This document shows, piece after piece, positions 6,372-63,224 of a stretch of DNA of 64,000 nucleotides. The stretch is from Minisyncoccota bacterium (GTDB taxonomy: Bacteria; Patescibacteriota; Minisyncoccia; Phycocordibacterales; VMEP01). The position numbers and the translations under genes were made by a program. The notes beneath the pieces were generated by a model. It was given only the letters and a program-made list of their open reading frames with translations. It was not told where the DNA came from and did not search any database. The first letter of the stretch is position 1, and every line of letters starts with the position of its first letter. The stretch is from NCBI GenBank assembly GCA_041661305.1, contig JBAZUR010000001.1, positions 33,591-97,590 of the forward strand, given 5' to 3'.

Positions 6372-6376
6372 AAACA

Positions 6377-13616: not shown

Positions 13617-13815
13617 TAAAATAAAGAAGACGGCTAGCGAGCCGTTCTTCTTTATTTTATGCCCGAGAGCGACTGAACTGCTTCAGTCGCGTGCAGGAAT
13701 CGAAAGGCGGAACTATGTTTTTGTAGCAACAAAAACAAGTGAGCCGGGGTCGAGGAAATTTTGAGTGGCGACGAAAAATTATCCGTGACCGAAAGCGTAC
13801 TCGCGATTCCTGCTG
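13617..13815 (+). repeat. tRNA-associated miniature element (plus orientation) downstream of tRNA-Arg
   Basis: Two hairpins, then the T-loop-complement box gcaggaatcgaaaggcggaac (13691-13711). Then the conserved M motif in reverse-complement form, gagccggggtcgagg...ccgtgacc (13741-13790). Then cgattcctgc, a direct copy of the tRNA-Arg T-loop/T-stem segment. Confidence 0.6.
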
Positions 13816-14035
13816 AATTGTTTTTCCGTGGTCAAGAAAATTTTGTCTTCAAAATTATTAGTGACCGATTCCTGCCAATGGTACAAATCAACACTATTGC
13901 TTTTTTTATCCGGTATTGTATAGTTTGGGCTGGTTTTACCCATTTAATCTTAACAAGAAAGGTGGACAAGTTCTTTAAGCCTAACAAGCTTTGGAGGTTT
14001 TTAATTGTTTAAAAACATACAATAAGGAAACAGTC

Positions 14036-14464
14036 ATGCAAGATTCGCAAACTGTATCAGGAACAAAACCTGCCACCGGAAAGAAGGCCAAGCCAGCTTT
14101 CGGCAGGAAGAAGGTTACCCGCGTCGATCTTTTTTTCGACAAGGAAACCCCGGCTCCGTACCAGCGTCCGGCCGTCGCGTATTCGCCGGGTTTTACGGCG
14201 CGTTACATGATTCCGTGTCGTGTCGGGGAAAATGGCAGAATCAACGCCAACCTTTCCGAGCTTTGTGGCTTTCTCCGCAACAGCAATGTTTCGGTCATCG
14301 GCAAAAAGAAGGTGGTCGAGATCGAAGCGAAAAGGGGTCGGCACATGCGCCGAATGAAGCGCGAGGTCATTGACCCGGGCCCTGATTGCGAGGTCGTCGT
14401 CTTCACGAATATGACGACACCGCACTGTTACGCCCTGAAGTCACAGGTCGTGAGCGGCCTGTAG
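14036..14464 (+). CDS. Hypothetical protein, GC-rich (compositionally foreign)
   Basis: 142-aa ORF (start at ATG 14036 within ORF 13991..14464). Locally far more GC-rich than its surroundings, with a GC hairpin at 14486-14509 downstream. No recognisable family. Confidence 0.45.
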   Translation: MQDSQTVSGTKPATGKKAKPAFGRKKVTRVDLFFDKETPAPYQRPAVAYSPGFTARYMIPCRVGENGRINANLSELCGFLRNSNVSVIGKKKVVEIEAKRGRHMRRMKREVIDPGPDCEVVVFTNMTTPHCYALKSQVVSGL

Positions 14465-20108: not shown

Positions 20109-20260
20109 GATAGAGGGGTCGGTCACGGATATTTTTCTGCTGAAAAATTCCGCGACCCCGTCTCGTCTGTCCTCACAGACTGCGACTTTCGACTTCTCGC
20201 GCAAGTGAATTTGTTACTTGCTTATCGCGCACATAAAAATGCGCTTCTCTTATTTTTAGG
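20109..20260 (-). repeat. tRNA-associated miniature element downstream of tRNA-Val
   Basis: Copy of the tRNA-Val 3' segment gatagaggggtcg (20109-20121) fused to M motif ggtcacggatatttttctgctgaaaaattccgcgaccccgtctcg (20121-20166). Box gcgactttcgacttc with inverted match to the tRNA T-region. Hairpin gcaagtgaatttgttacttgc. Confidence 0.6.
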
Positions 20261-26926: not shown

Positions 26927-27613
26927 AGCCTCATCCATTTCCTTTTTCTTCTGCTCAAAGGCGTAAGGAGTAAAAACAACGAAACCATTAGGGAATCGTT
27001 TTAATTCTTTGTTATCTTGGAACCTTTTATATGGGAGTTTATATTCGCCGTCCTTTTTCTTTGGGTTTTCAAAATACTCACTACTTGGAACTTCATAATT
27101 AATATCAATGAACTCGCCTTCTATTTTGTTTTTGACTCCTCCCTTACCACGCCTAACCTCGCCACTGAATGATTTCTTTTTAACTTGGTAGTTCAAGATT
27201 TTGCCTCTATATGTAATTTGAAAATCTGCTCCCTGATGGTCAAGCTCGCCTGACATAGAAACTGTGCCTTCGCCAAAAACTGATTCTGCAACATAACCGG
27301 CGTGGATTTGAGTGATTATACTCGCCCATGTTCTATAAATTCTAGCGGGCAATCCTTTATGAAAACATTCTTTACACATCCCAATTTTTTCTTGAAACTT
27401 TTTAATCTCTGCCCCATATTCACTCATATACTCTTTGTAAAATTCATCAAAACTTAGAAATTCTTTCTTCCCCCAGTATATTTTGTAGAGTAGGTTAATA
27501 GCTTGGATTTCTTTTGGTAAATCCATTTCCACGATCTTAACAGGTCTATATTTTTCACGATAGGACTTAAGGTCAACTGATTGTAAAAATTTGTCGAATT
27601 TTTGGACTAGCAT
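26918..27613 (-). CDS. Candidate type II restriction endonuclease (no recognisable family)
   Basis: 231 aa. Convergent with the MTase with a 9-nt 3' overlap. Immediately downstream of and co-oriented with the XRE controller gene. Possible D..(ADFQI)..K core. Confidence 0.4.
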   Translation of the reverse strand: MLVQKFDKFLQSVDLKSYREKYRPVKIVEMDLPKEIQAINLLYKIYWGKKEFLSFDEFYKEYMSEYGAEIKKFQEKIGMCKECFHKGLPARIYRTWASIITQIHAGYVAESVFGEGTVSMSGELDHQGADFQITYRGKILNYQVKKKSFSGEVRRGKGGVKNKIEGEFIDINYEVPSSEYFENPKKKDGEYKLPYKRFQDNKELKRFPNGFVVFTPYAFEQKKKEMDEALK

Positions 27614-27616
27614 AAA

Positions 27617-27835
27617 TTATAGAAAATATGATGACGGTTTTTGGTATATCTCTGCAAATTTTTTCATTTCTGCCACATCAAGCCTTCTTTCACCAGATTC
27701 AATCTTTGAGATAAAAGATTGTGGTTTCCCGAGCTTATCAGCAACATCTTGCTGTGCTAATCCGGCTTCAACACGCGCCTTTTTCAAGCGTCTTATAATC
27801 TCTTTGTAGTCCTTTGAATAAACAGATTTACTCAT
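27617..27835 (-). CDS. XRE-family HTH regulator (C-protein-like controller)
   Basis: MSKSVYSKDYKEIIRRLKKARVEAGLAQQDVADKLGKPQSFISKIESGERRLDV is a canonical HTH_XRE. Start taken at the internal ATG; the longer ORF extends into IR-A. Confidence 0.7.
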   Translation of the reverse strand: MSKSVYSKDYKEIIRRLKKARVEAGLAQQDVADKLGKPQSFISKIESGERRLDVAEMKKFAEIYQKPSSYFL

Positions 27836-27870
27836 GTATTTAGTATGATATATCCTTTTATGGTATAATC

Positions 27871-27897
27871 CCAAAATAGGATTATATAGAGTAGTTT
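27871..27897 (-). promoter_or_regulatory. Candidate C-box/operator palindrome upstream of the controller gene
   Basis: TATAATCC-tattttg-GGATTATA inverted repeat about 35-60 bp upstream of the XRE start. Confidence 0.35.
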
Positions 27898-27905
27898 TAC
27901 CCCTC

Positions 27906-28075
27906 GCCCCATCGCCCATACCTAAATCAAAGAATTTCCCGCCGGACTGATAAAGAATGGAGAGCGATGGGGCGAAGGGCGACCGCGCGTAATCGCGCGG
28001 TGGGCGCCGAGTGAAGCGAGGCGTTACGAGCTCCGCTCGAAAAAGGTTCGTGCAAAGGATAGAATTACATCACAA
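27906..28075. repeat. IR-A right copy (170 bp)
   Basis: Exact reverse complement of 21610-21779. Its outer 6 bp overlap IR-B left. Confidence 0.9.
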
Positions 28076-28206
28076 TTTGATACATCGGCTGGATTAAGAA
28101 AAAAATCGGCGTCCGCCTTCGGCGGAGTAAGTGGAGATAAAACGAAATCTGCCTTGCGGGTGCGGGCGAAATCGGAGGGCGGGCAAAATGAGATTGAGAT
28201 AGTTTT
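28070..28206. repeat. IR-B left copy (137 bp perfect inverted repeat)
   Basis: Exact reverse complement of 29624-29760. Confidence 0.9.
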
Positions 28207-28231
28207 TAAAGATTTTGAATCCAAAAGCGAT

Positions 28232-29818
28232 ATGTCTAAACCAAAATATTTTCTCTATGCTCGCAAGAGTACTGAAGATGACGATAAGCAAGTCATGAGT
28301 ATTGAAGCTCAATTGTTTGAACTTCGTGAGTTTGCGAGCAGAGAAAATCTTGAAATTATTGAGGAATTTCAAGAGTCAAAAAGCGCAAAGAGTCCGGGAC
28401 GAGAAGTGTTCGGCGTAATGATGATGCGTATAGAGAAAATGGGTAATGTTGGTATTCTCGCGTGGCATCCTGACCGCTTGGCGAGAAACAGTATTGATGG
28501 CGGACGCATCATTTACGCCGTAGACACTTCAAAAATCGTCTCTTTGCGTTTTCCGACATTTTGGTTTGAACCCACTCCGCAGGGGCTATTTATGCTTCAA
28601 GTGGCGTTCGGACAGTCCAAATATTATTCCGACAATTTGAAGCAGAATGTTGAACGAGGTATGCGCCAAAAACTGCGACGGGGCGAATGGCTGACACGCG
28701 CTCCCTTCGGGTATGTGAACAATCCTAAAACGCGCAATATTGAGCCGGATGTAGTGAAATCTAAAATTATTGTCCGCGCGTTTGGAGAATATGTAAAAGG
28801 AACACATACTCTAGAGTCGCTGTCGCAGTTTTTGGCTCTGCACGGTGTAGCGCAAAAGTCCGGAACGCCACTTGGCAAAGCTTCCGTGAAAAGAATTTTG
28901 ACTAATCGCGCTTATCTTGGATTCACTTTGCATCGCGGAGAATATTTTCCCGGAAGCTTTGCGCCAATTCTTTCTCCGACATTGTTTGAAGCTGTACAAA
29001 AAAGATTGGAAGAGCGAGCGCGTCCAAGACACAGCAAAATATCCCATAATTTTCCTTTCGTTGGTCTTTTTCGTTGTGGCGAGTGTGGCTCAATGATTAC
29101 CGCCCAATGGGCGACAAACCGGTGGGGTTCAAAGTATAGATATTATCGCTGTACGAAAAAGAAAGGAAAATGTTATCAGGGATATTTGAAAGAAGACGCT
29201 CTCGCTCTCCAAGTTAAGGAACAGCTTCAATCAGTGTCTATACCCCTAGCGTGGGCGGATTATATGCTCAAAAAAGTGGAAGAATTTGAGCATAACGAAA
29301 AACACGCTTCGGGAAATCGTCTCGGGCAGATGAAGGACAATCTGAAAACGCTTGAAGCGAAGTTAGACGCTCTTGTTGATTTGTATCTAAACCAAGACAT
29401 TGAGCGCGAGATATATCTGACGAAAAAGGACGCGCTCATGCGTCAAAAACTTTCGCTTCAAGCCAAATCTTCATCCGCCCGAGCCGTGAGAAAGAATTGG
29501 GTCGAACCCCTGCGGAAATGGATTTTGGATTCAAAACGCTCGGGGTTTCTCGCCACGAGCGAAAATCTCTATGAGATGAGAGATTTTCTTCGTTCCTTCG
29601 GAACGAACCCCTCGCTTAAAGACAAAACTATCTCAATCTCATTTTGCCCGCCCTCCGATTTCGCCCGCACCCGCAAGGCAGATTTCGTTTTATCTCCACT
29701 TACTCCGCCGAAGGCGGACGCCGATTTTTTTCTTAATCCAGCCGATGTATCAAATTGTGACCCTACAGGGAATCGAACCCTGGTTCCAAGCTTGAAAAGC
29801 TTGTGTCCTAACCGTTAG
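28232..29818 (+). CDS. Large serine recombinase (resolvase/invertase catalytic domain, recombinase domain and zinc ribbon)
   Basis: YARKSTEDDDKQVMSIEAQ (catalytic Ser), GILAWHPDRLAR, recombinase-domain segment and CGECGSMI...YRCTKKKGKC zinc ribbon. Start at MSKPKYF. The open frame runs through IR-B right into tRNA-Glu, so the true C-terminus is uncertain. Confidence 0.8.
   Translation: MSKPKYFLYARKSTEDDDKQVMSIEAQLFELREFASRENLEIIEEFQESKSAKSPGREVFGVMMMRIEKMGNVGILAWHPDRLARNSIDGGRIIYAVDTSKIVSLRFPTFWFEPTPQGLFMLQVAFGQSKYYSDNLKQNVERGMRQKLRRGEWLTRAPFGYVNNPKTRNIEPDVVKSKIIVRAFGEYVKGTHTLESLSQFLALHGVAQKSGTPLGKASVKRILTNRAYLGFTLHRGEYFPGSFAPILSPTLFEAVQKRLEERARPRHSKISHNFPFVGLFRCGECGSMITAQWATNRWGSKYRYYRCTKKKGKCYQGYLKEDALALQVKEQLQSVSIPLAWADYMLKKVEEFEHNEKHASGNRLGQMKDNLKTLEAKLDALVDLYLNQDIEREIYLTKKDALMRQKLSLQAKSSSARAVRKNWVEPLRKWILDSKRSGFLATSENLYEMRDFLRSFGTNPSLKDKTISISFCPPSDFARTRKADFVLSPLTPPKADADFFLNPADVSNCDPTGNRTLVPSLKSLCPNR
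29624..29760. repeat. IR-B right copy (137 bp)
   Basis: Reverse complement of 28070-28206. Ends exactly at the 3' end of tRNA-Glu. Confidence 0.9.
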
Positions 29819-37950: not shown

Positions 37951-38038
37951 ATGGAACAACCGGAAAACAAAATCGCCCCATGTGGGGCGATTTTTTCTTG
38001 CATTTTGTGTTTAACTTTAGAGTGAGATATGTCTTTTT

Positions 38039-38116
38039 GAAAACATTGCGCAGGCCGACGAGGCCGAGCATAGCGATTCGCTAGCAAGCGAATACGCGTG
38101 TTTTCAAAAAGAGCAT
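38039..38116 (+). repeat. Intergenic structured motif R, copy 1
   Basis: gaaaacattgcgcag, GC hairpin ggccgacgaggcc, agcatagc, hairpin gattcgctagcaagcgaatac, gcgtgttttc. Shares boxes with copies at 41823 and 45464. Confidence 0.6.
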
Positions 38117-38128
38117 AGCGAGCGGTTT

Positions 38129-39274
38129 TTATTTCTTTTTCGATTCGTCTAAGTAGGTGAGCGTCATTCTTTGTTCCTTTGGTTCAAAGAAAGTGATTTG
38201 GAAGTTGTAAGTCTTTCCAAGCTCTAATGCTTCACGAATTTTTTCTTCAGAACCAAATTCGGAAACATGAGCCAATCCCGCGACACCTTCTTCGATTGAG
38301 ACAAGCGCACCGTGTTTGTTGAACTTAATAACAACACCATTCACGATATCGCCTTTTTTGTATCTCTTCTCGATACCTTTCCATGGGTTTTCCTTGAGAG
38401 CCTTGATGGATAAGGAAATCTTTCCTTCTTTGATTTCGATAACCTTGACCTTTATCTTGTCTCCAACTCTAAACATTGAGCGTGGATCTTCTACGAGACC
38501 CCAATCAATTTCCGAGATATGAACAAGACCTTCGAGACCATCTTCAATTTTAATGAAGACGCCGAAGTCGACAATGCCTGTCACTTCGCCAAGAAGTTCG
38601 TCGCCAACCTCAAACTTGGAAAGGACGGCATCTCGTTCCTTGTGATCTTCTCCTTTTTCAGAAAAGATAAGTTTTCCTTCTTTAGGACTTGCCGAGATGA
38701 TGTAAACACCAAGTTTTGTTCCAACGAGTTTCTTTAACTCACGCAAGATTTTGTCTTTGTCGCCATCTTCAACGCGTGGATAGTGTTCAGGTTTTAGTTG
38801 AGAAGCAGGGAGGAATCCAACGATACCTTGCCATTCAATAATAAGACCGCCCTTGTTTGCCTCTTTGATTGGAAGCTCAAGAGTTGTCTTTGCTTTGATT
38901 GCGGCCTCAGCGTCGCTCCAAATAAGAGCTTGGCGAGCCTCCTTGAGAGACAACTCAATATATCCATCTTCGTTTACAGTTGAAACAACCTTCGCTTTAA
39001 CAGAATCACCGATATTTATTTTTTTGATAATTTCTCGGGCATTTATAAATTCACGTCCGAAAATAATACCTGTTCCAAACGGCTTCAAATCAACAAACAC
39101 CGCTGCACGCTCAATTCCAATGACTGGTCCTTCAATCAAGTCCTCGTCTTTTAACATCGCGCCACTGTGCTCAACAACCATCTTAAGCGCATTCGCTTTT
39201 TTTAACGCCTCCTCGTATTCGGCTAATTCCGAAAAATCAGCTAAATCAAATTTCTCTTTCTTTTTTGCAGTCAT
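38129..39274 (-). CDS. rpsA: 30S ribosomal protein S1 (short four-S1-domain form)
   Basis: Repeated S1 OB-fold units (GxV.G.V..I..FGVF..I..G..GL.HISE). Confidence 0.8.
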   Translation of the reverse strand: MTAKKKEKFDLADFSELAEYEEALKKANALKMVVEHSGAMLKDEDLIEGPVIGIERAAVFVDLKPFGTGIIFGREFINAREIIKKINIGDSVKAKVVSTVNEDGYIELSLKEARQALIWSDAEAAIKAKTTLELPIKEANKGGLIIEWQGIVGFLPASQLKPEHYPRVEDGDKDKILRELKKLVGTKLGVYIISASPKEGKLIFSEKGEDHKERDAVLSKFEVGDELLGEVTGIVDFGVFIKIEDGLEGLVHISEIDWGLVEDPRSMFRVGDKIKVKVIEIKEGKISLSIKALKENPWKGIEKRYKKGDIVNGVVIKFNKHGALVSIEEGVAGLAHVSEFGSEEKIREALELGKTYNFQITFFEPKEQRMTLTYLDESKKK

Positions 39275-39455
39275 AATAATTAATTAAAAAAATCCGCCAC
39301 CTTATGCAGGTGAAGCGGAATATCTCCCAGATTCGCTTGTGTACTACTAAAACTGGAGCCAAGCGAGGTTAACTGGGAAATCCGCTGTTAATGACGAAAA
39401 GGTAACACAAAGCGGATAAAAGTTCAATGTTTTGTGGTGCTAAAAATAAAAAAGT

Positions 39456-39477
39456 AAAAGCCCGCATTATGCGGGCT
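39456..39477 (-). terminator. Rho-independent terminator (minus strand) closing the GC-rich non-coding region
   Basis: aagcccgc-atta-tgcgggctt preceded by an A-run on the plus strand (U-run in the minus-strand transcript). Confidence 0.6.
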
Positions 39478-39990
39478 TCCCCCAATCCGGGTTTCGGTTT
39501 AGGGTCGTCTCGGTGGACGTCTGTACGGCGCGTGGCGCAGTTTCTGGCACATGGCTGTCTCCAATTTGTTTTGGATGTTGCTTAGGGTTTTATTCGAACC
39601 CCGAGTTTTAAAACTCCTTTCTCTTGTTGAAGATTTAATTGAGGATTTGGCCGGGGCAACACTTTCGTGTGGTCGCCCCGGCCTCCCCAAACGCGGGAGG
39701 TTTTCCCGCGAACCAGATTGTCCGCCGGTGGAGTTTAGCCCAATGTGGGAATTCTCTCCGAGCGAGGCGCGACATCTGGCACTACCCCAACTTTCGTTGG
39801 GTACTTCTGGCTTGCCGTTGCCCTGGTTTCAGGTCGTGCCGGCGGCCGCGCAGTTGTCGCTGATCGTCTTGCCCTGGTTGATTTCGTTGAATTTTAAACA
39901 ACACTCCTCACTTGCCGTTGCCGGCGGTCCGTGCATATACATGGCGATCTCCTCTAGAACTTCAGCCTTTGGTTTTTTAGGTTAGAAACC
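39478..39990 (-). ncRNA. GC-rich structured non-coding RNA candidate of unknown class
   Basis: About 500 nt with no credible ORF. GC far above flanks. Minus-sense hairpins with GNRA loops (cccaacGAAAgttggg at 39785-39800; ggccggggc...acacGAAAgtgt...gccccggcc at 39651-39685) and cctccc/gggagg stems. Ends at a terminator. Confidence 0.4.
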
Positions 39991-40108
39991 AAGGGTACCA
40001 AAACCGCCCCTTTTTGGAACGTGCTACTAGGGAAAAGGTTAGCACGGAACTGTATTATTGTCAACCATTAAAAACTGGCTCAAATAAAGGAGTTTTTAGG
40101 TAATTAGT

Positions 40109-40200
40109 GTTTAAATTTCGTGGAAAAGTGCTTTTTTTCTTTCTTCAAAAAAGAGAACAAATGTTAACCACGCAAGAATGCTCATAGATCCGGCAATTCC
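40109..40200 (-). pseudogene. Duplicated 3' fragment of the MFS transporter gene (C-terminal ~30 codons)
   Basis: 40109-40187 is near-identical to 40528-40605, the 3' end of CDS 40529..41776. It encodes ...IAGSMSILAWLTFVLFFEERKKALFHEI*. Confidence 0.6.
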
Positions 40201-40257
40201 ACTAGAAAAATTTACCTAAAAAACAGAACAGAAATAGAAGTAGTATGAAAACGGAAA

Positions 40258-40296
40258 GGGCAGGGTATCTTGTTTTTGATACTCCTGCCCTTTTGG
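40258..40296 (+). terminator. Rho-independent terminator-like hairpin
   Basis: gggcagggtatc-ttgtttttga-tactcctgccc followed by TTTTGG. Confidence 0.45.
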
Positions 40297-40528
40297 TGTG
40301 TAGGTCACCACCCTTAAAACATAGTCGGGTGGGATACGAACATCCTACCTTTGGCCTTAATCGCTGGGAGACCACCAGATTGCGAGCACTACCCGCGGCG
40401 TAAAGTGCGACTTTTGTATAATCCCGGGCGCCTTCCCGTGTTGCATCTTTAGCTATTCTAGCTTAATTCGTTATTTTTGTCAATAGCTAAAATACCCTTT
40501 AAACAAAAGGTATTTTGGTGGTTAGTAT

Positions 40529-41776
40529 TTAAACCTCGTGGAAAAGTGCTTTTTTTCTTTCTTCAAAAAAGAGAACAAATGTTAACCACGCAAGAATGCT
40601 CATGGCGCCAGCTATTAAAATCGGAAGATTAATTGATATTGTCGCGGCAAACCCGGCGAGTATTGGAGGGAGGGCTTGGGCAAGGGATTGAATTGATTGA
40701 TTTATTCCCAAAATTTCACCTTGTGACTCTTTGTCGGCCAAATTGGAAACAATAGCGTTATAGTTTGGCATTGTGAGTCCATTCCAAATTGAAATAAATG
40801 GAATGATTAGATAAATATAAATTGCTTGGTCCGGTAAAAGTAAAAAAGGGAAAGTTAAACCAAGGAGAAGGGTTGAAAAACGGAGAATTTTTACTGGCGC
40901 AAATTTAAAGGAAAGTGGGCGCACGATAAGCCCTTGAGTTAGTGCTATGCATAGTCCCATGTACGCAAAAAGATTTCCGAGGTTGCTTTGAGTAAATTCA
41001 AATTTGTTTATAAGAAACACTTGGAAAAATTGAGTGAAAAATGCAAATCCAAACGATAAAAGAAAAATGACAATAAAAATAACGCGGAGGTTTTCCATAT
41101 GAAAAGCTTTTTCTATGTTTTTGAATCCGGTCAGAATAGATATTTTTCTGTGGATCCTTGTTTTTAGTGTTTCTTCAAATTGGAAATAAATTAGTATGAT
41201 GTTTAAGAACGTAAGTATTGAGGAGAATAAAAATGGCGTTGCGTAATTAAAAGAGCTGTAGACTAATGGGTCAGATAGCTTCCCGCCTAAAAACGGACCG
41301 ATAATAAATCCTAAACCGAGCATCATTCCTACAAGTCCGAAATTACGTACTTTGGTGCGCTCATCGCTTATGTCGGCAATGGCACTATAAGCAACAGATA
41401 AACTTCCTCCAGAAAACCCAGAAAGAATACGCCCGAGGAATATAACAGGAAGGCTGGCCGTTATTATTCCAATAGCTGTGAGTAAGTACCCTGCGAGCAT
41501 TCCACCAAGGGAAGCTAGAAAAATTGGCTTTCGGCCGATTCTATCTGATAGTCCACCCAAAATAGGAGAACCAAAAAATTGGGCAATTGGATAGCACGCA
41601 AGAAGAAAACCCAAAATTATGTTACGAAAGGCGACGCCGTATGAAGGGGGGAGAATCCCCGTTTGGTGCATATCAAGAAGTAATGGGGCGAAAATTGGGA
41701 TGACAATACCAAAGCCGACCAAGTCGATAAAGACAATAGTGATTATGGGTAGTAGGGGGTTTTTTCTAGCGAGCAT
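40529..41776 (-). CDS. MFS transporter
   Basis: 12 TM helices and the GGLSDRIGRKP MFS motif A. Confidence 0.8.
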   Translation of the reverse strand: MLARKNPLLPIITIVFIDLVGFGIVIPIFAPLLLDMHQTGILPPSYGVAFRNIILGFLLACYPIAQFFGSPILGGLSDRIGRKPIFLASLGGMLAGYLLTAIGIITASLPVIFLGRILSGFSGGSLSVAYSAIADISDERTKVRNFGLVGMMLGLGFIIGPFLGGKLSDPLVYSSFNYATPFLFSSILTFLNIILIYFQFEETLKTRIHRKISILTGFKNIEKAFHMENLRVIFIVIFLLSFGFAFFTQFFQVFLINKFEFTQSNLGNLFAYMGLCIALTQGLIVRPLSFKFAPVKILRFSTLLLGLTFPFLLLPDQAIYIYLIIPFISIWNGLTMPNYNAIVSNLADKESQGEILGINQSIQSLAQALPPILAGFAATISINLPILIAGAMSILAWLTFVLFFEERKKALFHEV

Positions 41777-41822
41777 AAAAATTGGAAAGACTCTTTGTGT
41801 TTAATTATCCCAAAATACTCTT

Positions 41823-41890
41823 GAAAAACATTGCGCAGCGTGACGACGCGAGCATAGTTGATTCAGCTGGAATCATATCGCGCAATCGTC
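41823..41890 (+). repeat. Intergenic structured motif R, copy 2
   Basis: gaaaaacattgcgcag, hairpin cgtgacgacgcg, agcatagt, hairpin tgattcagctggaatcat. Confidence 0.55.
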
Positions 41891-41992
41891 CATTTAAGCG
41901 CGATTTTCTTCAGCAGAAAATTATACGTGTTTTGAAAGAGTATTTTAAAAAGACTTCAAACCAACCAAAATATTTGGTATAGTCATTGGAAT

Positions 41993-42625
41993 ATGATTAT
42001 TACACACTACGGCAAACAATTTTTCAAGGTTCAGCTCGGAGATACGACGCTTGCTTTCAATCCAATTTCAAAAGATTCAAAAGTAAGGGCTGCGCGTTTT
42101 GGCGCTGATGTTGCACTTTCTTCTATTAATCACCCCGACTATAACGGGGTTGATACTGTTGTGTATGGAGAAAAAGAGCCACTCGCAATTACAGGACCAG
42201 GAGAATACGAAACGCGCGGAGTTTTTATAAAGGGAATTCCCACAGAAGTAACTATTGGAGGAAAAAAATACATTAATACAATTTATCTTTTTGAACTCGA
42301 CAATATAAAAATTTGTTTTCTTGGCGCATATGCAGGGAAACAATTACCAGCGGTGACGAACGAAGCAATCGAAGAGATTGATATACTTTTTGTTGCGATT
42401 GATGGAAATGAGCGAGTAACACCAGCAGATGCATATGCTTTGGCTATTTCTCTTGAACCAAAAATTATTATTCCGATGGATTACGATGAAAATACAAAAG
42501 CCCTCAAAACATTTTTAAAAGAAGGGGACGCAGAAGAGGTGAAAGGTCTCGATAAGTACACAGTTAAGAGGAAAGATTTAGAGGGGTGCGCAGGGGATAT
42601 TGTTGTTTTAGATTCACAATCATAA
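41993..42625 (+). CDS. Metallo-beta-lactamase-fold hydrolase-like protein (motifs degenerate)
   Basis: MIITHYGKQFFKV...GADVALSSINHPDYNG resembles the UPF0173/MBL-fold family, but the HxHxDH motif is incomplete. Confidence 0.45.
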   Translation: MIITHYGKQFFKVQLGDTTLAFNPISKDSKVRAARFGADVALSSINHPDYNGVDTVVYGEKEPLAITGPGEYETRGVFIKGIPTEVTIGGKKYINTIYLFELDNIKICFLGAYAGKQLPAVTNEAIEEIDILFVAIDGNERVTPADAYALAISLEPKIIIPMDYDENTKALKTFLKEGDAEEVKGLDKYTVKRKDLEGCAGDIVVLDSQS

Positions 42626-42627
42626 AC

Positions 42628-42900
42628 ATGCAAGAATTAGAAAAATTTTTAGCAGATCTCCGAACAAAACCACTACACGTTAGAAAGACGATTTTAGTTG
42701 TTACCACATCGGTAATTACACTTTTTGTTGCGATTACTTGGGGGTATTCATTTCAAGGGAAGTTGGCACAGCTAAATGGAGAGAGGGTAATTGCAGCGAC
42801 AGCCGCTGCGCCAACTGTACTTATTGGAAAAGAAGCCTCTAGTTTTTGGGGTGGAGTTTCTGGTTTAGTTTCAGAATTAAAACATCAATTATCGTTTTAA
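42628..42900 (+). CDS. Hypothetical small membrane protein
   Basis: 90 aa with one TM helix (ILVVTTSVITLFVAITWGY). Confidence 0.35.
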   Translation: MQELEKFLADLRTKPLHVRKTILVVTTSVITLFVAITWGYSFQGKLAQLNGERVIAATAAAPTVLIGKEASSFWGGVSGLVSELKHQLSF

Positions 42901-42947
42901 AACTGCTTTCAAAATCAGCTCATTTGTGCTAGAATATCCGAAATAAT

Positions 42948-45407
42948 ATGGCTAAAGAGAAGGATTTGGAAATAAAAGAGGAACGAAAAGACGGGGTAGT
43001 GCCCGTCAATATTAGTTCTGAAATGAAGGAGTCATACCTCGACTATGCGATGTCGGTTATTACCCAGCGCGCTCTTCCTGATGTCCGCGACGGATTGAAG
43101 CCGGTGCATCGCCGTATCCTTTATGCGATGAACGAGATGGGACTTAATTCGTCTGCAAAATTTAGAAAATCAGCTGCAGTTGTTGGAGATGTTTTGGGAA
43201 AGTATCACCCGCACGGAGACGTGGCTGTTTATGACACCATGGTCAAAATGGCTCAAACTTTCTCCTATCGCTACCCACTTATTTTAGGTCAAGGAAACTT
43301 TGGTTCAATCGATGGTGACTCTGCTGCAGCAATGCGTTATACCGAAGCAAAAATGTCTCGTCTTTCCGGCGATCTTCTAAATGACATTGATAAAAATACT
43401 GTTGATTTTCGTCCAAACTATGATGGTTCAAGAAAAGAACCGATTGTATTACCAGCAGCAATGCCAAATCTTGTTTTAAACGGAACGCTTGGAATTGCTG
43501 TCGGTATGGCCACGAACATTCCCCCACACAATATTAGTGAGGTTATTGATGCCTGCGTCACTCTTATAGATAAAGATGATGTGACAAACGAGGATATTTT
43601 AATGCACATCAAAGGTCCAGATTTTCCTACTGGAGGAATGATTTTTGCTGACAAAGAAATGCGTCACGCATATGCGTCTGGTCGTGGTGGTGTCGTTTGT
43701 CGCGGTGAGGCAGAAATTTTGGAAACAAAACAGGACCAGTTTCAAATTATAATCACCTCCATTCCTTACCGCGTGAACAAAAGCGAGCTTATTGTTCATA
43801 TTGCAGATCTTGTTCGCGACAAAAAACTAGAGGGTATTAAAGACATTAGAGACGAATCAACAAGAGATATTCGTGTTGTTATCGATTTGAAAAACGGCAT
43901 TCATCCTCAGAAGGTTTTGAACTATATCTATAAGCATTCAGAGCTTGAGACAACTTTCCACTTCAATACCCTTGCTCTCCTCGACGGTGTTCCACAAACA
44001 CTTTCATTTAAGTCTATGCTCGAAGCATTTTTGGCTCATAGGCAAGTTGTTATAAGGCGCCGAACACAATTTGATTTGGACAAAGCCCTTGAACGTGAGC
44101 ATATTTTGATTGGTTTGAAGAAAGCACTCGATCATATTGAGGCGATTATTAAGACGATCAAAAAATCAAAAGATACTCCGACTGCTCAACTCAATTTGAT
44201 GAAGGAGTTTAAATTCTCTGATAGGCAAGCGAATGCAATTCTTGAGATGCGTTTGCAAAAACTCGCCGGGCTTGAGCGCAAAAATATTGAACTTGAATTA
44301 GAAGAAAAGCAAAAGCTAATCAAAGAGTTGAAAACACTTTTGGCTAGTGAGAAAAAAATACTTGATTTGATTAAGACAGAAATGCTTGAAATTAAAGCAA
44401 AGTATGGAGATGCTCGTCGCACAAAAGTTGTCCGTGGTGGAGTAAAGGAAATTTCTGACGAAGATTTGGTTGAAGACAAAGAGTCTGCGCTTGTGTTTAC
44501 GCAAGGCGGATATGTTAAGCGTACCGACCCAGCAGAGTATCGTGTTCAAAAACGTGGAGGAGTTGGTGTTGTTGATTTAAATACAAAAGAAGAAGACATT
44601 GTTTCGCTGTTGATTACAACATCAACGCATAGCGACCTTTTGTTCTTTACAGACAAAGGGAAGGCATACCAAATGAAAATGTATGATATTCCAGAGGGAA
44701 GACGCGCAACTCGCGGAAAATCAATTATGAATTTCCTATCGCTTTCTGCGGAAGAAAATGTCACCTCGATTTTGCCGATGCCAAAATCACTTAAGGATGA
44801 AAAAATGTCACTCGCAATGCTTACCAAGAACGGAACTATCAAAAAGGTTTCCGCGGATAGTTTCAAAGATGTTCGAAGAAGTGGGCTTATTGCTATCAAA
44901 CTTGAACAAGGAGACGAGCTTCTCTCAGCTTTCTTTGCGCGTAAAGGAGATAGTATTATTCTTGCAACCAAAAAAGGACAATCAATTCGCTTTGAGGAGT
45001 CTGATGTGCGTGAGATGGGACGAGCTGCAGGTGGGGTGCGCGGAGTGAAGCTTGGAAAAGGGGACGCTGTTGTTGGTGCAGATGTTGTGCGCCCTGATTT
45101 TAAGAACCCAAACATGCTCGTGATGATGGAAAATGGTTATGGAAAGCGTACTCCAATGAAAGAATATAAAATACAAAAACGTGGTGGTTCAGGAATGAAG
45201 ACAGCAAAAACTACCCCAAAAACAGGTAACGTCATCGCGGCCAAAATAGTGACCGACGAGCTTACACAAGTTATCGCGATGTCTAAGAAGAGTCAGGTTG
45301 TGAAAGTTGACCTCTCAACCATTCCTGTTTTGGGACGCGCTACTCAAGGTGTGCGCATTATGAAGCCAAGAGAGGGGGATAGTTTAGCTTCACTTACTTG
45401 TCTTTAA
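42948..45407 (+). CDS. gyrA: DNA gyrase subunit A
   Basis: [28 protein letters not shown], active-site Tyr region and GyrA-box beta-pinwheel repeats. Confidence 0.9.
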
Positions 45408-45463
45408 TCTAATTCTGTTTTTTTGTTGGTATTTTTTTTCTTTATCATTCCGTTTTTATTTTT

Positions 45464-45532
45464 AAAAACATTACGGAGCGCGACGGCGCGAGTATAGCAA
45501 TCCGCCAGCAGGCGGATATGCGTGTTTTTGGA
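45464..45532 (+). repeat. Intergenic structured motif R, copy 3
   Basis: aaaaacattacggag, hairpin cgcgacggcgcg, agtatagc, hairpin aatccgccagcaggcggata, tgcgtgtttttgg. Confidence 0.55.
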
Positions 45533-45617
45533 AATAAAAGCAAAATTTATATAAGCAAGGTATACACAAAAGCTTGCTCTATGGTCTAATAACTTTTATA
45601 ATTTAAGCAAGTAATTT

Positions 45618-51401: not shown

Positions 51402-51563
51402 TGTGCGGTATTTAGCTGAGCGAAAATGCCAAGCTATTACTGCTTCAAATTATACATAAAATGAGCCAAAAGTCAAGGTGGGGAGGGGTGTTAAAAAGGT
51501 CTCGATTACGAGTTATGGAATAAAGAAAGGAGACTCGGCTAAGAACATTTTTACTCGTCGGCA

Positions 51564-51749
51564 CTCGTAGAAACTGGAGGGGGAAACTCGGTCACGAATA
51601 ATTTTGAGGACAAAATTTTCGCGACCCCGGCTCGCTGTCGCAGAGCGACATGCTCCGTCTTTCGAGTCTCCACACAAGCCAAGCAGTTGGCTTGTTCCTC
51701 CAGCACATAATTAAAAAACACACCCTAAAGGGTGTGTTTTTTAATTATG
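51564..51749 (-). repeat. tRNA-associated miniature element downstream of tRNA-Leu(TAG)
   Basis: Copy ctggagggggaaactcg of the tRNA-Leu 3' segment fused to M motif ggtcacgaataattttgaggacaaaattttcgcgaccccggctcg (51579-51623). Box ccgtctttcgagtctcc. Hairpin caagccaagcagttggcttg. 48-bp perfect palindrome terminator (51706-51753). Confidence 0.65.
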
Positions 51750-51831
51750 TGCTGGAGGGGAGACTCGAACTCCCAAGCCTTGCGGCATTAGTTCCTAAGA
51801 CTAACGCGTATACCAATTCCGCCACTCCAGC
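51750..51831 (-). tRNA. tRNA-Leu (anticodon TAG)
   Basis: Reverse complement GCTGGAGTGGCGGAATTGGTATACGCGTTAGTCTTAGGAACTAAT...GGGAGTTCGAGTCTCCCCTCCAGCA (long variable arm). Confidence 0.8.
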
Positions 51832-51870
51832 AAGTTGTTTGTCGCCAATATAAAAATACTACACGTATCG

Positions 51871-52021
51871 CAAGAGTCGGTCACGAATAATTTTGAAGAC
51901 AAAATTTTCGCGACCCCGGCTCACCTCGTTTTGTAAGAACAAAACATGGTTCCGCCTTTCGACTCCTGCCCGCAAGTGAAGCAGTTCACTTGCTTGAGCG
52001 GATATCTCGCTGCGCTCAATG
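51871..52021 (-). repeat. tRNA-associated miniature element downstream of tRNA-Lys
   Basis: M motif 51879-51923 (loop gaagac), preceded by a partial tRNA-like copy caagagtcg. Box ccgcctttcgactcctgc is an inverted copy of the tRNA-Lys T-region. Hairpin caagtgaagcagttcacttg. Confidence 0.6.
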
Positions 52022-52094
52022 TCCGCCCAGCAGGAGTCGAACCTGCGACCATTTGCTTAAGAGGCAACTGCTCTACCAACTGAGCTATGGGCGG
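52022..52094 (-). tRNA. tRNA-Lys (anticodon CTT), unusual C1:G72 first pair
   Basis: Reverse complement CCGCCCATAGCTCAGTTGGTAGAGCAGTTGCCTCTTAAGCAAATGGTCGCAGGTTCGACTCCTGCTGGGCGGA. Confidence 0.7.
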
Positions 52095-52136
52095 ATATAT
52101 ATAATTTTATACTAACTTTGTTAGCATCTACCAACT

Positions 52137-52264
52137 GGTCACTCATAATTTCTTGCTAGAAATTTGCTCGACCCCGACTCGCCTCGTCAGGCTCCGTCTC
52201 TCAATTGCTTCACATGTCGCAATTGAGCCCCGCCCGTACTGAACGTACGTTCGGGCTGGTATGG
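52137..52264 (-). repeat. Degenerate tRNA-associated element (variant M') flanked by fragments of tRNA-Lys
   Basis: Variant motif ggtcactcataatttcttgctagaaatttgctcgaccccgactcg. Preceded by tctaccaactg (a copy of the tRNA-Lys D-region) and followed at 52250-52262 by ggtatgggcggat (a copy of the tRNA-Lys 5' end). No intact tRNA attached. Confidence 0.5.
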
Positions 52265-52367
52265 GCGGATATTTCTAACGAGTTGAATCATAGCAATTTA
52301 TTGCATATTTTTCAATGAAAATAGGGAAAAGGACTCGGGGTAGAAAAGGGACAGTATTTTTTTCTTG

Positions 52368-52474
52368 TGGTCACGTATAATTTCTTGCTAGAAATTTACG
52401 CGACCCCGCCTCGCGCCGTCGCGCTCCGGCCGGGACCAAATAAAAATACTCACTTAGGTGAGTATTTTTATTTG
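52368..52474 (-). repeat. tRNA-associated element (variant M') downstream of tRNA-Leu(TAA)
   Basis: ggtcacgtataatttcttgctagaaatttacgcgaccccgcctcg. Then a 40-bp perfect palindrome terminator ccaaataaaaatactcac-ttag-gtgagtatttttatttgg abutting the tRNA 3' end. Confidence 0.55.
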
Positions 52475-52557
52475 GTGCCCGGAGTGGGACTCGAACCCAC
52501 ACGACCTATTGGCCAACAGATTTTAAGTCTGTAGCGTCTACCATTCCGCCATCCGGG
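52475..52557 (-). tRNA. tRNA-Leu (anticodon TAA)
   Basis: Reverse complement GCCCGGATGGCGGAATGGTAGACGCTACAGACTTAAAATCTGT...GTGGGTTCGAGTCCCACTCCGGGCA. Confidence 0.8.
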
Positions 52558-52599
52558 CAAATTTAAAATATTTTATTCTACTTAAATAAACTAAGCAAA

Positions 52600-52772
52600 A
52601 ATTGCTTGAGGCCTAGGGCGGAATCGGTCACGAATAATTTTTACTACCTGCAAAAATTTTCTCGACCCCGGCTCGCGATTTTGTCTGCTGACAAAATATC
52701 GCTCCGCCTTTCGCTTCCGTCACATCCCGCAAGCAGTTGCGGGATTCTATGCCGTCGGAACTTCCTCTAGGA
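52600..52772 (-). repeat. tRNA-associated miniature element downstream of tRNA-Cys
   Basis: 21-nt exact direct copy ttgaggcctagggcggaatcg (52600-52620) of the tRNA-Cys 3' trailer, acceptor and T-loop (52780-52800). It is fused to M motif 52620-52669. Box ccgcctttcgcttcc. Hairpins catcccgcaagcagttgcgggat and acttcctctaggaagt. Confidence 0.7.
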
Positions 52773-63079: not shown

Positions 63080-63224
63080 GGCGGGCCCACGGGAATCGGT
63101 CACAAGTATTTTTCTGCTGAAAAATCTCGCGACCCCAGCTCGGCACGTCTGCCTCCGCCTTTCGAATCCTCACGCAAGCAAAATGATTTGCTTGCTGTGA
63201 TCCCTACGTTCACTTTGTTCACAG
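63080..63224 (-). repeat. tRNA-associated miniature element downstream of tRNA-Trp
   Basis: Copy ggcgggcccacgggaatcg of the tRNA-Trp 3' end fused to M motif ggtcacaagtatttttctgctgaaaaatctcgcgaccccagctcg (63098-63142). Box ccgcctttcgaatcctc is an inverted copy of the tRNA T-region. Hairpin gcaagcaaaatgatttgcttgc. Confidence 0.65.

Follow-up and report, generated by a model that had tools for sequence, protein, structure and literature searches.

The 64-kb stretch of DNA analysed here (the window) carries three copies, c1 to c3, of a folded intergenic repeat that we favour, on balance, as belonging to a family of small, non-autonomous, structure-dependent, dispersed mobile repeats of Paceibacteria (Patescibacteria/CPR). 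A metagenome scan recovered at least 114 distinct copies, and others are present in named Patescibacteria and Nomurabacteria MAGs, the hosts being Paceibacteria/Patescibacteria. One lineage carries the same closing stem at at least 12 different loci, together with decayed half-copies. The element matched nothing in Rfam 15 and nothing among phage and plasmid sequences. This repeat family, uncatalogued until now, is widespread in candidate phyla radiation (CPR) bacteria. A first-pass annotation of this DNA had suggested a covariance-model search and a comparison with Rfam; metagenomes contain over 100 copies besides those of the window, named Patescibacteria MAGs contain others, and the comparison with Rfam identified no known family.

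The three window copies share the boxes AAAACATT(G/A)CG(C/G)AG, GAG(C/T)ATAG and CGTGTTTT, separated by hairpins whose letters vary while self-complementarity is kept, and each forms a closed three-way junction of a long closing stem (P1), P2 carrying a short hairpin, and P3, a hairpin with a bulge (Table 1). The first-pass annotation had described such same-strand copies with three boxes and variable self-complementary hairpins, and both the sequence and the + strand model scores bear it out; the pairing it saw between the outer boxes is real and far longer than noted (13–19 bp, G·U pairs included). Its extents (38039–38116, 41823–41890 and 45464–45532) located the right sites with the wrong limits. 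Copy 2 extends beyond 41890, its 3' box CGTGTTTT lying at 41926–41933, and what had been taken for its second hairpin (tgattc..gaatca) belongs to a 45-nt insertion, the hairpin homologous to hairpin 2 of the other copies being ttttcttcagcagaaaatt (41904–41922). This insertion is missing in the related copies L288, L317 and L378 and is found in L316 and L334 with compensatory changes. The further AGCATAG at 38111 is nothing more than the long closing stem's 3' strand. Upstream, the 11-nt TTTGTGTTTAA of the copy 1 leader recurs ahead of copy 2, and leaders like that of copy 2 (TTTG.ATTTAAT.ATCCC) precede the same subfamily at L265, L317, L334, L369 and L377 copy A. At its end, copy 1 is separated by 3 nt from the stop (38129–38131) of a convergent S1-domain gene, and copy 3 lies 44 nt past the gyrA stop codon, in the gyrA-methyltransferase spacer.

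Table 1. Positions of the repeat copies, their parts and the tRNA-linked cores in the window.
Feature	Position	Strand	Remarks
Copy 1 leader	37997..38021	+	A/T-rich cttgcattttgtgtttaactttaga; contains TTTGTGTTTAA and -10-like TTTAAC ~6 nt 5' of the fold
Copy 1 folded element	38022..38126	+	MFE -45.7 kcal/mol, z -6.1; R1 score 104.9 bits
Copy 1 P1	~38022-38046 with 38098-38124	+	includes GTGAG/CGAGC tandem G·A extension
Copy 1 P2	38047-38049 with 38068-38070	+	
Copy 1 hairpin hp1	38053-38065	+	loop GACGA
Copy 1 P3	38073-38097	+	loop AGCA, bulged A at 38094
Copy 2 leader	41794..41811	+	tttgtgtttaattatccc; -10-like TTTAAT 6 nt 5' of P1
Copy 2 folded element	41812..41946	+	z -4.3; R1 score 60.8 bits with a 55-nt insertion in P3; P1 3' strand runs to 41946
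Copy 2 5' box	41825-41838	+	
Copy 2 hairpin hp1	41839-41849	+	
Copy 2 GAGCATAG	41850-41857	+	
Copy 2 insertion module, 45 nt	41859..41903	+	two extra hairpins: tgattcagctggaatca and tcgcgc...gcgcga
Copy 2 P3-equivalent hairpin	41904-41925	+	followed by the 3' box
Copy 3 leader	45424..45451	+	T-rich, ends ...ctttatcattcc; basis includes comparison with L377
Copy 3 folded element	45452..45541	+	MFE -41.1 kcal/mol, z -6.3; R1 score 109.8 bits; middle P2 pair is the A-U variant (TTACGGAG...GAGTATAG)
tRNA-linked core, downstream of tRNA-Arg	13705..13790	+	
Partial second core after tRNA-Arg	13828-13866	+	
tRNA-linked core, downstream of tRNA-Val	20121..20187	-	
Five tRNA-linked cores, block 51590..52709	51590-51660, 51879-51957, 52137-52199, 52369-52431, 52626-52709	-	
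tRNA-linked core, downstream of tRNA-Trp	63098..63163	-	

Across the family, a short A/T-rich leader precedes a folded repeat of ~105–135 bases that comprises P1 (typically 18–22 bp), a P2 of 3 bp that has a GSA/GA internal loop and is topped by a hairpin of 4 bp with a GACG-like loop, and a P3 containing a bulge and an upper stem of 7 bp. Only the inner 5–6 bp of P1 are conserved and its outer part co-varies between copies. Such compensated variation is unlike the terminal inverted repeats bound by transposases and speaks against the mobile-repeat reading.

Comparison of 78 non-redundant copies revealed double compensatory changes in 27 of the 36 pairs of the consensus fold, with 93.5% of cells paired versus 70% in shuffles and 37–54% in slid controls, and a covariation score of 0.611 versus 0.177. 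The middle P2 pair was G-C in 68 copies, A-U in 8, G-U in 2 and A·C in none, and all four Watson-Crick types were present at P3 pair 65:88. On the element strand G·U outnumbered A·C (59:18), indicating that selection acts on the fold of one strand. Likewise, the + strand folds of all three window copies beat their reverse complements by 4.5–12 kcal/mol each, and the covariance model R1, trained on unrelated metagenome copies plus c1 and c3, scored c1, c2 and c3 at 105, 61 and 110 bits on the + strand versus ~16–22 bits, or no hit at all, on the - strand. In alignment A2, part of the invariance of AAAACATT, CG.AG and GAG.ATAG was imposed by the search pattern; copies outside that pattern compensate even in the pattern-forced boxes (AAGAAC/GTTCTT; P2 C-G for U-A in L377). 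The boxes alone, with 3 mismatches allowed, gave 13 matches where 10.4 were expected, which is not above chance, and a search with R1 found no further full copy in the window; significance rests on the whole architecture, not on the short boxes. In sum, this is a selected secondary structure with true covariation on one strand, a specificity that fits RNA or another single-stranded form. The earlier proposal of a conserved RNA structure is thereby strengthened, and its looser wording, a selected palindromic element, was close to the mark.

Alignment with related loci showed that each of the three window sites is empty in at least one relative. Copy 1 is missing from L371, L373, L374, L375 and L376, and alignment with the first four of these empty sites places its leader, too, within the missing block. 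Copy 2 is missing from L377 and present in L378, two genomes whose S1 proteins are identical, and copy 3 is missing from L377, where a canonical intrinsic terminator hairpin stands that the window lacks. L377 in turn has two copies at places where the window has none, so that presence and absence turn over rapidly at five loci among relatives. No unambiguous target-site duplication was found at the element junctions, any possible duplication being unreadable because the junctions lie within T/A runs. Close relatives thus differ by gain and loss of these units, which are not a fixed regulatory site. The first-pass annotation had missed this dispersed, gained-and-lost nature, as well as nine tRNA-linked cores in the window.

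The elements lie between genes and can face either way (<E< 28, >E> 19, <E> 17 and >E< 12, where E is the element), independently of the neighbouring genes, and GC skew was positive for 33 of 74 copies, so that orientation is also unrelated to GC skew and shows no replication-strand bias. A three-way junction with conserved junction nucleotides, with copy 2 upstream of a gene, might suggest a riboswitch or attenuator for the downstream gene, but the downstream gene and orientation are inconsistent, P1 is too long and stable for switching, the gene's promoter-like site (41955–41983) comes after copy 2 rather than containing it, and close relatives have empty sites. We consider such a role extremely improbable, and the attenuator or fixed cis-regulatory site entertained earlier finds no support, given the same mixed orientation, promoter position and empty sites.

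A SPRITE- or REP-like element acting in cis at RNA ends, selected because it terminates transcripts of adjacent genes or blocks 3' exonucleases on them, would account for other aspects of this placement. The folds have high stability, GUGUUUU follows P3, the c3 spacer lacks the intrinsic terminator that L377 has there, and in ~24 of the 36 copies of one large subgroup a convergent gene's stop codon lies 0–6 nt away. In that subgroup, however, the element is antisense to the abutted gene, yet the G·U bias remains on the element strand (21:10). Orientation is mixed overall, and a terminator scan called none inside the copies. Moreover, c1 adjoins an intact bidirectional terminator, so no terminator is needed there, and a plain barrier needs no conserved junction sequences. 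Selection for this purpose is therefore unlikely.

A homologous family follows tRNA genes and accounts for nine cores in the window, one of them partial (Table 1). R1 detected this sister family at 52340–52463 (41.6 bits, E 1.7e-7), and its P2 and P3 are 98.5% paired, with G·U wobbles conserved. A same-strand tRNA lies upstream of 77 of 124 sister copies, in ~70 of these within 50–150 nt. Both tRNA-Arg cores are followed, directly or past a short extra hairpin, by ATTCCTGC, a repeat of the T-arm 3' strand of the tRNA, and the five-core block is interleaved with tRNA-Leu(TAG), Lys, Leu(TAA) and Cys, with the remnant of an older copy nearby (~51530–51565). The right end is fixed at T-loop C56/G57 across at least 15 tRNA species, beyond which up to 34 nt of the tRNA 3' part are repeated; the unit also contains an internal antisense copy of the flanking tRNA target, the repeated or complemented segment running from near T-loop position 56–58 to the tRNA 3' end. 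In arrays, newer copies adjoin the tRNA and decayed copies lie farther out. The sister family is thus joined site-specifically to the tRNA T-loop and accumulates in arrays there.

This behaviour raises the possibility of a folded single-stranded DNA recombination site, similar to integron attC, at which a structure-specific recombinase encoded elsewhere inserts units into tRNA T-loops (sister family) or A/T runs (the main repeat family), new units displacing older ones outward. Conservation of structure over sequence, the bulged base and the strand bias would fit, as would the fixed right junction, the internal segment complementary to the flanking target, the newest array unit lying nearest the tRNA, and the clean coming and going of units. 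The attC consensus (RYYYAAC...GTTRRRY), in contrast, is absent from the outer ends, no integrase is linked, and the sole recombinase of the window, a large serine recombinase, lies on a separate island. In the main repeat family both P1 strands are inside the inserted block, so the target supplies neither strand, and a replication-strand bias is missing. Such a site is distinctly unlikely.

Retroelements use about the same 3' portion of tRNAs, from T-loop position 56–58 to the 3' end. A new ribozyme that cleaves or ligates itself, or a retro-mobile RNA, could pair through P1 with a flanking substrate, the tRNA-linked version using the tRNA 3' portion like a primer-binding site. Small ribozymes typically show just such a signature: many copies in differing contexts, each with a three-way junction in which the junction nucleotides are conserved and the helices vary. 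Nevertheless, no Rfam 15 ribozyme family matched even at E up to 10, and a P1 of 18–22 bp far exceeds ribozyme substrate helices. Reverse transcriptases are absent from the 64-kb window, as are transposases, and none recurs among 240 loci. The element has no poly-A or similar retro-insertion signature of its own, the A run 3' of c2 being present in the empty site as well. Either form is very improbable. More broadly, no mobilising enzyme or parent insertion sequence was found, and no protein family recurs among the neighbours beyond housekeeping genes, with no partner gene nearby.

Some copies appear to have persisted. Copy 2 is 82% identical between the window and L378, equally diverged as its flanks (76–83%), and the unit at tRNA-Lys remains ~90% conserved between genomes that share only 66% identity in their SPFH protein, indicating that some copies are old and retained; they could have a cellular function. 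Accordingly, the elements might be multi-copy small-RNA genes (a protein-binding or sponge RNA, or an RNP RNA) with a promoter in each leader, the tRNA-linked relatives acting on or with their tRNA. Besides the conserved tRNA-Lys unit, such genes would be consistent with the strand-specific covariation, with a -10-like leader (TTTAAT/TTTAAC 6–7 nt ahead of P1) that travels with the element, with an orientation independent of neighbours, as suits self-contained genes, and with a possible binding surface suggested by the tandem G·A motifs and the conserved nucleotides of the junction. The quick turnover at five loci and the decayed and half copies argue against them, however, as does the lack of a general promoter enrichment upstream (3.70 versus 3.62 on the opposite side) and of any terminator called within the elements; dozens of divergent paralogues per genome would also be unusual for a trans-acting sRNA. 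We regard this explanation as doubtful.

For the mobile repeat that we favour, conservation of structure and junction nucleotides, with stems drifting under compensation, would be explained by recognition of a folded strand. We propose that this folded single strand may be the substrate of a trans-acting host or element enzyme, whose recognition of the fold would lead to the unit being copied or inserted. RNA is the most likely form of this strand, produced by transcription from the element or by read-through, with folded single-stranded DNA as the alternative. After insertion, so stable a fold probably has a passive influence on neighbouring transcripts, either by serving as a 3'-end barrier or terminator surrogate, as might occur at gyrA, or possibly through outward promoter activity. 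Several observations weigh against the favoured reading: no enzyme, parent insertion sequence or unambiguous target-site duplication was found, some copies are old and retained, promoter signals are not generally enriched upstream of the copies, terminators are not generally close by (14 of 98 copies versus 6–14 in controls), and part of the box invariance was imposed by the search pattern. Taken together, the substance of the first-pass observation is confirmed with parts corrected, and its interpretation is partly supported.

Several known systems share parts of this picture. REP/REPIN sequences with RAYT are likewise high-copy extragenic palindromes whose functional unit is a hairpin, often after stops between convergent genes, but REPs are 20–40 nt long, carry a GTAG or CGTC tag, are arranged as inverted pairs and adjoin a RAYT gene. 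The Paceibacteria repeat shows none of these traits, and a replication-strand bias is absent here. Integron attC sites also conserve structure over sequence, have a bulged base and are strand-specific, and in integron arrays, as in the sister family, whose flank supplies part of the closing stem, new units enter beside a fixed point. Here, however, the R''/R' consensus, a linked IntI and gene cassettes are absent, the entry point is the tRNA T-loop, and the main repeat family carries both stem strands itself. With islands of tRNA-targeting tyrosine integrases the sister family shares the T-loop junction, the tRNA 3' end repeated at the far side and tandem accretion; it differs in having units of only ~100–200 bp without an integrase, the same core at at least 15 tRNA species, and an internal antisense target copy.

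In its behaviour the family appears, by analogy, to resemble bcr1, ERIC, Correia and SPRITE-type bacterial repeats. ERIC/IRU, Correia (CREE/NEMIS), RUP, BOX and SPRITE-type MITE-like repeats are small, intergenic, present in either orientation and strain-variable, fold as long RNA hairpins and can carry promoter-like or terminator-like signals (PMC3184786, PMC10969869). The ERIC/Correia type has conserved terminal inverted repeats and defined duplications (TA), and several are tied to a parent insertion sequence, whereas in the Paceibacteria repeat conservation falls on the internal three-way junction, with no sign of a parent element. The bcr1 repeat of the Bacillus cereus group, one of the group A bcr elements and ~155 bp long, is transcribed, non-conserved in position between strains and maintained in its fold by compensatory changes (PMC3184786). 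It belongs to another phylum, with no known sequence relation to the Paceibacteria repeat, has clear 5-bp direct repeats where the Paceibacteria junctions in T/A runs leave duplications unreadable, lacks a tRNA-targeted sister family, and has demonstrated transcription. Both, nevertheless, are non-autonomous, multi-copy elements of ~100–155 bp with a closing stem and two independent stem-loops, unconserved in position between related strains and held to their fold by compensatory changes.

Folding of the three plus-strand copies of the repeat (c1, c2 and c3) revealed a common three-way junction, consisting of a closing stem (P1), a P2 arm with a capping hairpin, a two-base linker and a P3 arm. 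P2 contains 3 bp (U-A, R-Y, C-G), an internal loop (GSA/GA) and, as its cap, a 4-bp hairpin with a GACG(A) loop. In P3, a lower stem of 3 bp and an upper stem of 7 bp are separated on the 3' side by a single bulged A, and the loop is of the AGCA or CAGCAG type. The plus-strand folds had z-scores of -6.1 (c1), -4.3 (c2) and -6.3 (c3), and each reverse complement was less stable by 4.5-12 kcal/mol. The boxes reported in the first-pass annotation are shared by all three copies on the plus strand (AAAACATT(G/A)CG(C/G)AG, GAG(C/T)ATAG and CGTGTTTT), as are the short G+C-rich hairpin between the first two and the second hairpin before the third, and the proposed pairing of the outer boxes is real, forming part of the long P1 (13-19 bp in these copies, G·U included). 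The extents of the three sites are revised here (Table); c2 had been cut short, and what was taken for its second hairpin is a piece of a 45-nt insertion (41859-41903) rather than the homologous hairpin. The insertion is missing from the related loci L288, L317 and L378 and present with compensatory changes in L316 and L334. A second AGCATAG near c1 is the 3' strand of P1 and not a separate box, and the P3 of c2 is of the type found in the homologous tRNA-linked sister family described below.

Table. Folded elements of the repeat family and cores of the tRNA-linked sister family
Feature	Coordinates	Strand	Source and remarks
c1, folded element	38022-38126	+	folding
c2, folded element	41812-41946	+	folding; 3' box 41926-41933
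c3, folded element	45452-45541	+	folding
sister-family core	13705-13790	+	window
sister-family core (partial)	13828-13866	+	window
sister-family core	20121-20187	-	window
sister-family core	51590-51660	-	window
sister-family core	51879-51957	-	window
sister-family core	52137-52199	-	window
sister-family core	52369-52431	-	window
sister-family core	52626-52709	-	window
sister-family core	about 63098-63163	-	window

A metagenome scan with the pattern AAAACATTRCGSAGN{10,16}GAGYATAG gave at least 114 distinct sequences among the matches listed, nearly all of which contained the complete architecture, including parts on which the pattern places no demand (P1, P3 and the 3' box). In an alignment of 78 non-redundant copies, RNAalifold called 36 pairs, and at 27 of these both sides changed in a compensatory manner, supporting the covariation claimed from the three copies. 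Paired cells made up 93.5%, compared with 70% for shuffled and 37-54% for slid partners, and the covariation score was 0.611 versus 0.177. For example, the middle P2 pair was G-C in 68 copies, A-U in 8, G-U in 2 and never A·C, and one P3 pair occurred in each of the four Watson-Crick forms. In this alignment, the lack of variation in the 5' box and in GAG.ATAG is partly imposed by the search pattern; copies at the syntenic locus L377, found by covariance model, carry AAGAAC/GTTCTT in P1, C-G replacing U-A in P2 and, at the base of P3, A-U replacing G-C, all of them compensated changes inside the pattern-forced region.

Selection acts on the fold of one strand, whether this is RNA or some other single-stranded form, because G·U exceeds A·C by 59:18 in well-aligned helices and because the covariance model scores are strand-biased. 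This model, built from unrelated metagenome copies plus c1 and c3, gave 105-110 bits for c1 and c3 and 61 bits for the interrupted c2 on the plus strand, compared with about 16-22 bits or nothing at the same places on the minus strand. We consider a family of cellular small RNAs unlikely; a dedicated promoter upstream of P1 showed no enrichment over the opposite side. Orientation relative to the neighbouring genes was mixed (<E< 28, >E> 19, <E> 17 and >E< 12, with E the element). Promoter-like sequence was observed on the opposite strand, where TATAAT is the complement of an AUUAUA conserved in the P3 3' strand (41925-41920, minus strand, and the same place in many copies); in c2 it was called, with TTTAAA 18 nt upstream, as a promoter-like site directed out of the element toward the MFS gene.

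The repeat is widely dispersed in Paceibacteria, and further copies identified by the covariance model occur in metagenomes and in named Patescibacteria and Nomurabacteria MAGs. Public records label the window proteins Candidatus Paceibacterota, and the window gyrA is present in groundwater and freshwater metagenome contigs. In viral contigs (IMG/VR), the patterns of both families gave only chance matches in coding DNA, as checked by eye, and the phage and plasmid collections gave no match. Comparison with Rfam 15, suggested in the first-pass annotation, matched no known family, among them the hammerhead, twister, pistol, hatchet, HDV-like and hairpin ribozymes, riboswitches, T-box, Y RNA-like and Drum: the whole window at gathering thresholds returned RNase P and tRNAs only, and a search at E up to 10 around c1 and the tRNA-linked cluster returned sub-threshold, terminator-like or miRNA chance hits only. 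The class A RNase P RNA (6008-6375, plus strand) scored 104 bits, barely above the threshold of 100, and may therefore be divergent in this lineage. Searchable literature on structured RNAs, MITEs and tRNA-linked repeats of CPR/Patescibacteria contained no description of the element. The earlier observation was real but under-described: the element represents a structured repeat family that is both new and well supported, from an under-studied phylum whose genomes are tiny and streamlined and whose non-coding and mobile DNA is almost undescribed. The data set of more than 100 sequences with 27 covarying pairs is ready for an Rfam-type model, and 12 units of the two families in one 64-kb window suggest a high density.

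Comparison with relatives revealed that the repeat is gained and lost rather than occupying a fixed site. Syntenic loci were reached via the protein of the convergent S1-domain gene next to c1, which is 96% identical in L371-L373, L377 and L378 and 75-78% identical in L374-L376. c1 was missing from every syntenic relative examined (L371-L378); at the empty site, the distance between the T run of a bidirectional terminator and the S1 stop codon is only 6 nt, or 3-6 nt in L374 and L375. c3 was missing from L377, where gyrA is followed by a canonical intrinsic terminator; the window has lost that hairpin, and c3 sits about 25 nt past the leftover T run. c2 was missing from L377 and present, with the A-U form of P2, in L378, and these two loci encode an identical S1 protein. 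L377 also has two copies upstream of the S1 gene, where the window has none. Such units are usable as a tracker of recent genome change between strains.

The gained or lost block includes an A/T-rich leader of 14-25 nt outside P1 on the left. The leaders of c1 and c2 have TTTGTGTTTAA in common and a -10-like TTTAAC or TTTAAT 6-7 nt before P1, and leaders of this type also occur before members of the same subfamily elsewhere. Since the junctions fall in T or A runs (GATTTTTT/.../TTTTTA and CATAA(A)TT/.../AAAAAG, slashes marking the block), short target duplications are neither readable nor excludable. One metagenomic lineage shares one P1 among at least 12 loci and has many half copies. Some copies are old: the divergence of c2 between the window and L378 equals that of its flanks (82% versus 76-83%), with all stem changes compensated, and these values led us to reject faster evolution of c2 than of its flanks. 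In a digester lineage, degenerate 3'-half copies flank full elements (L354 4320-4400 and 4540-4610; L320 5641-5766), as does another short repeat, GTGGAACTATTCTTTGCGTGGCC.

Analysis of genomic context gave no sign of a linked partner or a preferred replication strand. No protein family recurred near the elements in about 240 loci, the commonest neighbours being housekeeping genes (BipA, UvrA, CCA-adding enzyme, MiaA, SmpB, FtsA and FtsH). The replication-strand bias expected of single-stranded-DNA transposons was not found, nor was a link to GC skew (33/74 positive). The 64-kb window contains no transposase and no reverse transcriptase, and its sole recombinase, a large serine recombinase (28154-29818), was dropped as a mobiliser, lying on what looks like a separate restriction-modification island. 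Large serine recombinase chemistry is not known to create long repeats. The region around it (25403-29818) encodes a LexA-DNA methyltransferase fusion, a TaqI-like restriction endonuclease and the 554-aa recombinase, whose ORF as listed overlaps tRNA-Glu, beside tRNA-Glu and tRNA-Ser; it is probably an integrated island, since none of its genes was called at the corresponding place in the syntenic L377. Some elements have as neighbours small, G+C-rich ORFs that gave no Pfam or NCBIfam hit (13991-14464 and 39551-39985 in the window; 9484-9639 in L377, one ORF lying between two copies at L377). A 121-nt direct repeat (40092-40212 and 40510-40630; 85% identity, 418 nt apart) has its second copy overlapping the 3' end of the MFS transporter gene.

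Another reading is that of a terminator or transcript stabiliser. c1, c3 and the second copy at L377 (copy B) sit about 20-30 nt after a terminator T run, and one large subgroup, including c1, has P1 extended by a tandem G·A motif (GCGAGG/CCGAGC) and lies 0-6 nt from the stop codon of a convergent gene, the genes varying from copy to copy; another subgroup has the motif with its strands swapped. General insertion beside terminators is unsupported (14/98 versus 6-14 in controls), a consensus scan called no intrinsic terminator inside c1-c3, orientation relative to the upstream gene is mixed, and the GUGUUUU after P3 bears only a weak resemblance to a terminator. We consider such a function improbable. 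The attenuator role proposed earlier, like a riboswitch, is contradicted by the mixed contexts, the lack of a recurrent neighbour family and the sites that are empty in relatives.

The sister family, detected by the same covariance model (best score 41.6 bits, E 1.7e-7), is associated with tRNA genes. The window contains nine cores, one partial, downstream of 7 of the 12 tRNA genes. The order is AGSCGGAG, variable hairpin, GAGSC, GG and GGTCGCG...CGTGACC, with the same three-way architecture and the same bulged P3. Across 45 sister-family copies taken from named MAGs, pairing in P2 and P3 was 98.5%, and both covariation and conserved G·U wobbles were seen. A genome scan gave at least 120 loci, nearly all Patescibacteria MAGs among the matches listed, and 77 of the 124 listed copies had a same-strand tRNA upstream, about 70 of these within 50-150 nt. 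Here the two strands of P1 are an internal segment antisense to the T-arm/acceptor 3' strand of the tRNA and, downstream of the core, a directly repeated 3' part of the tRNA; the right end of the unit (GTGAC/C) is joined to T-loop sequence. The repeat starts mostly at the last C of GTGACC (T-loop C56/G57), with a minority starting at the acceptor end, and is at least 9 nt in 51 of 80 copies, reaching 34 nt and sometimes extending past the tRNA end. The family of c1-c3 lacks the additional upstream copy of this P1 strand (3') that would give an X-X'-X switch like that of the tRNA family.

The T-loop junction is fixed across at least 15 tRNA species, making the sister family a tractable case of target specificity that combines this junction with an internal antisense target copy and a tRNA 3' repeat. 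A partial second unit follows the first at tRNA-Arg (window) and tRNA-Cys (L138), and three cores follow tRNA-Lys in L379. At tRNA-Leu(TAG), a decayed fragment (tacgagtgccgacgagtaaaaatgttcttagccgagtctcc; ~51530-51565, minus strand) lies distal to the current unit and matches an intact unit at the same tRNA in L379 (3660-3800), a pattern which suggests that new units enter beside the tRNA and older ones decay further out. The tRNA-Lys unit has been conserved even where the SPFH proteins of the two genomes share only 66% identity. Another conserved hairpin, separate from these units and with loop AACUGCUU, is found at 13103-13142 (plus strand) and inside units at about 13665-13684, 51690-51712, 51980-52000 and 52735-52757; after tRNA-Gly, it stands alone, closed by antisense and sense copies of the acceptor 3' end (TGCGGGTA...TACCCGCA), with the same flank logic as the larger units.

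We class the family of c1-c3 with the structured MITE-like repeats, a known general kind in which it is new. Its fold is probably the structure on which a trans-acting machinery for copying or insertion works; this would account for stems that drift in sequence although the pairing and the junction nucleotides persist. Inserted copies probably affect neighbouring transcripts passively. The broader proposal that both families together form a new structure-guided insertion system has a modest chance of being right. Here the core, a three-way junction of roughly 70-90 nt, would bring along an antisense 'guide' to the flank, and either an unlinked enzyme or catalysis by the core itself would insert it site-specifically, with the sister-family junction at C56/G57 of the T-loop in many tRNA genes and a cassette-like array growth. 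If true, the mechanism would be distinct from transposase-, integrase- and bridge-RNA-based systems, in a phylum of almost unexplored mobile elements; were the machinery new, it might offer a compact means of programmable insertion. An RNA with a cellular role at tRNA genes would bear on the tRNA biology of these bacteria.

A ribozyme or retro-element, whose RNA would itself be catalytic or reverse-transcribed, is very improbable. The hammerhead (CUGANGA/GAAA), group II domain V/GUGYG ends, classical kink-turn, retron a1/a2, bridge RNA and TnpB/IscB guide scaffold were all dropped by inspection, each lacking either its defining features or a partner gene. With respect to a kink-turn or box C/D-like motif (canonical stem, 3-nt bulge, then tandem G·A/A·G), inspection showed the following: the P2 loop places GSA opposite GA, with C as the middle base in half of the copies, and the P1 base in one subgroup is a symmetric tandem G·A (GCGAGG/CCGAGC), but neither has the 3-nt bulge geometry.

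The repeat shares with MITEs a small, non-coding and dispersed unit (about 105-135 bp, at least 114 distinct copies, at least 12 loci with one P1) and presence/absence polymorphism, c1, c2 and c3 each being empty in at least one relative and L377 having two extra copies. P1 is an inverted repeat in which only the inner AAAAC/GTTTT is conserved and the outer part co-varies; no transposase of an autonomous insertion sequence with the same ends was found in the window or among recurrent proteins of about 240 loci, nor was a RAYT/Y1 transposase. REP/REPIN-RAYT elements were rejected, the unit here being a single 90-135-nt three-way junction and a REP a 20-40-nt palindrome with a GTAG/CGTC tag in inverted pairs. 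A folded DNA site like integron attC (RYYYAAC...GTTRRRY), recognized as single-stranded DNA, is likewise improbable: only AAC...GTT is shared, at the inner and not the outer end of P1, no integron integrase lies near the elements, and array behaviour is limited to the tRNA-linked sister family. Closest in behaviour are repeats of the bcr1, ERIC, Correia and SPRITE type; bcr1, for example, is about 155 bp long, transcribed and variable between strains, and its fold combines a closing stem and two stem-loops with compensatory changes (PMC3184786). In contrast to these, the element described here has terminal repeats conserved in their inner part only, a conserved internal junction and no parent element seen, and it has a tRNA-targeted sister family that carries an internal antisense copy of its target.
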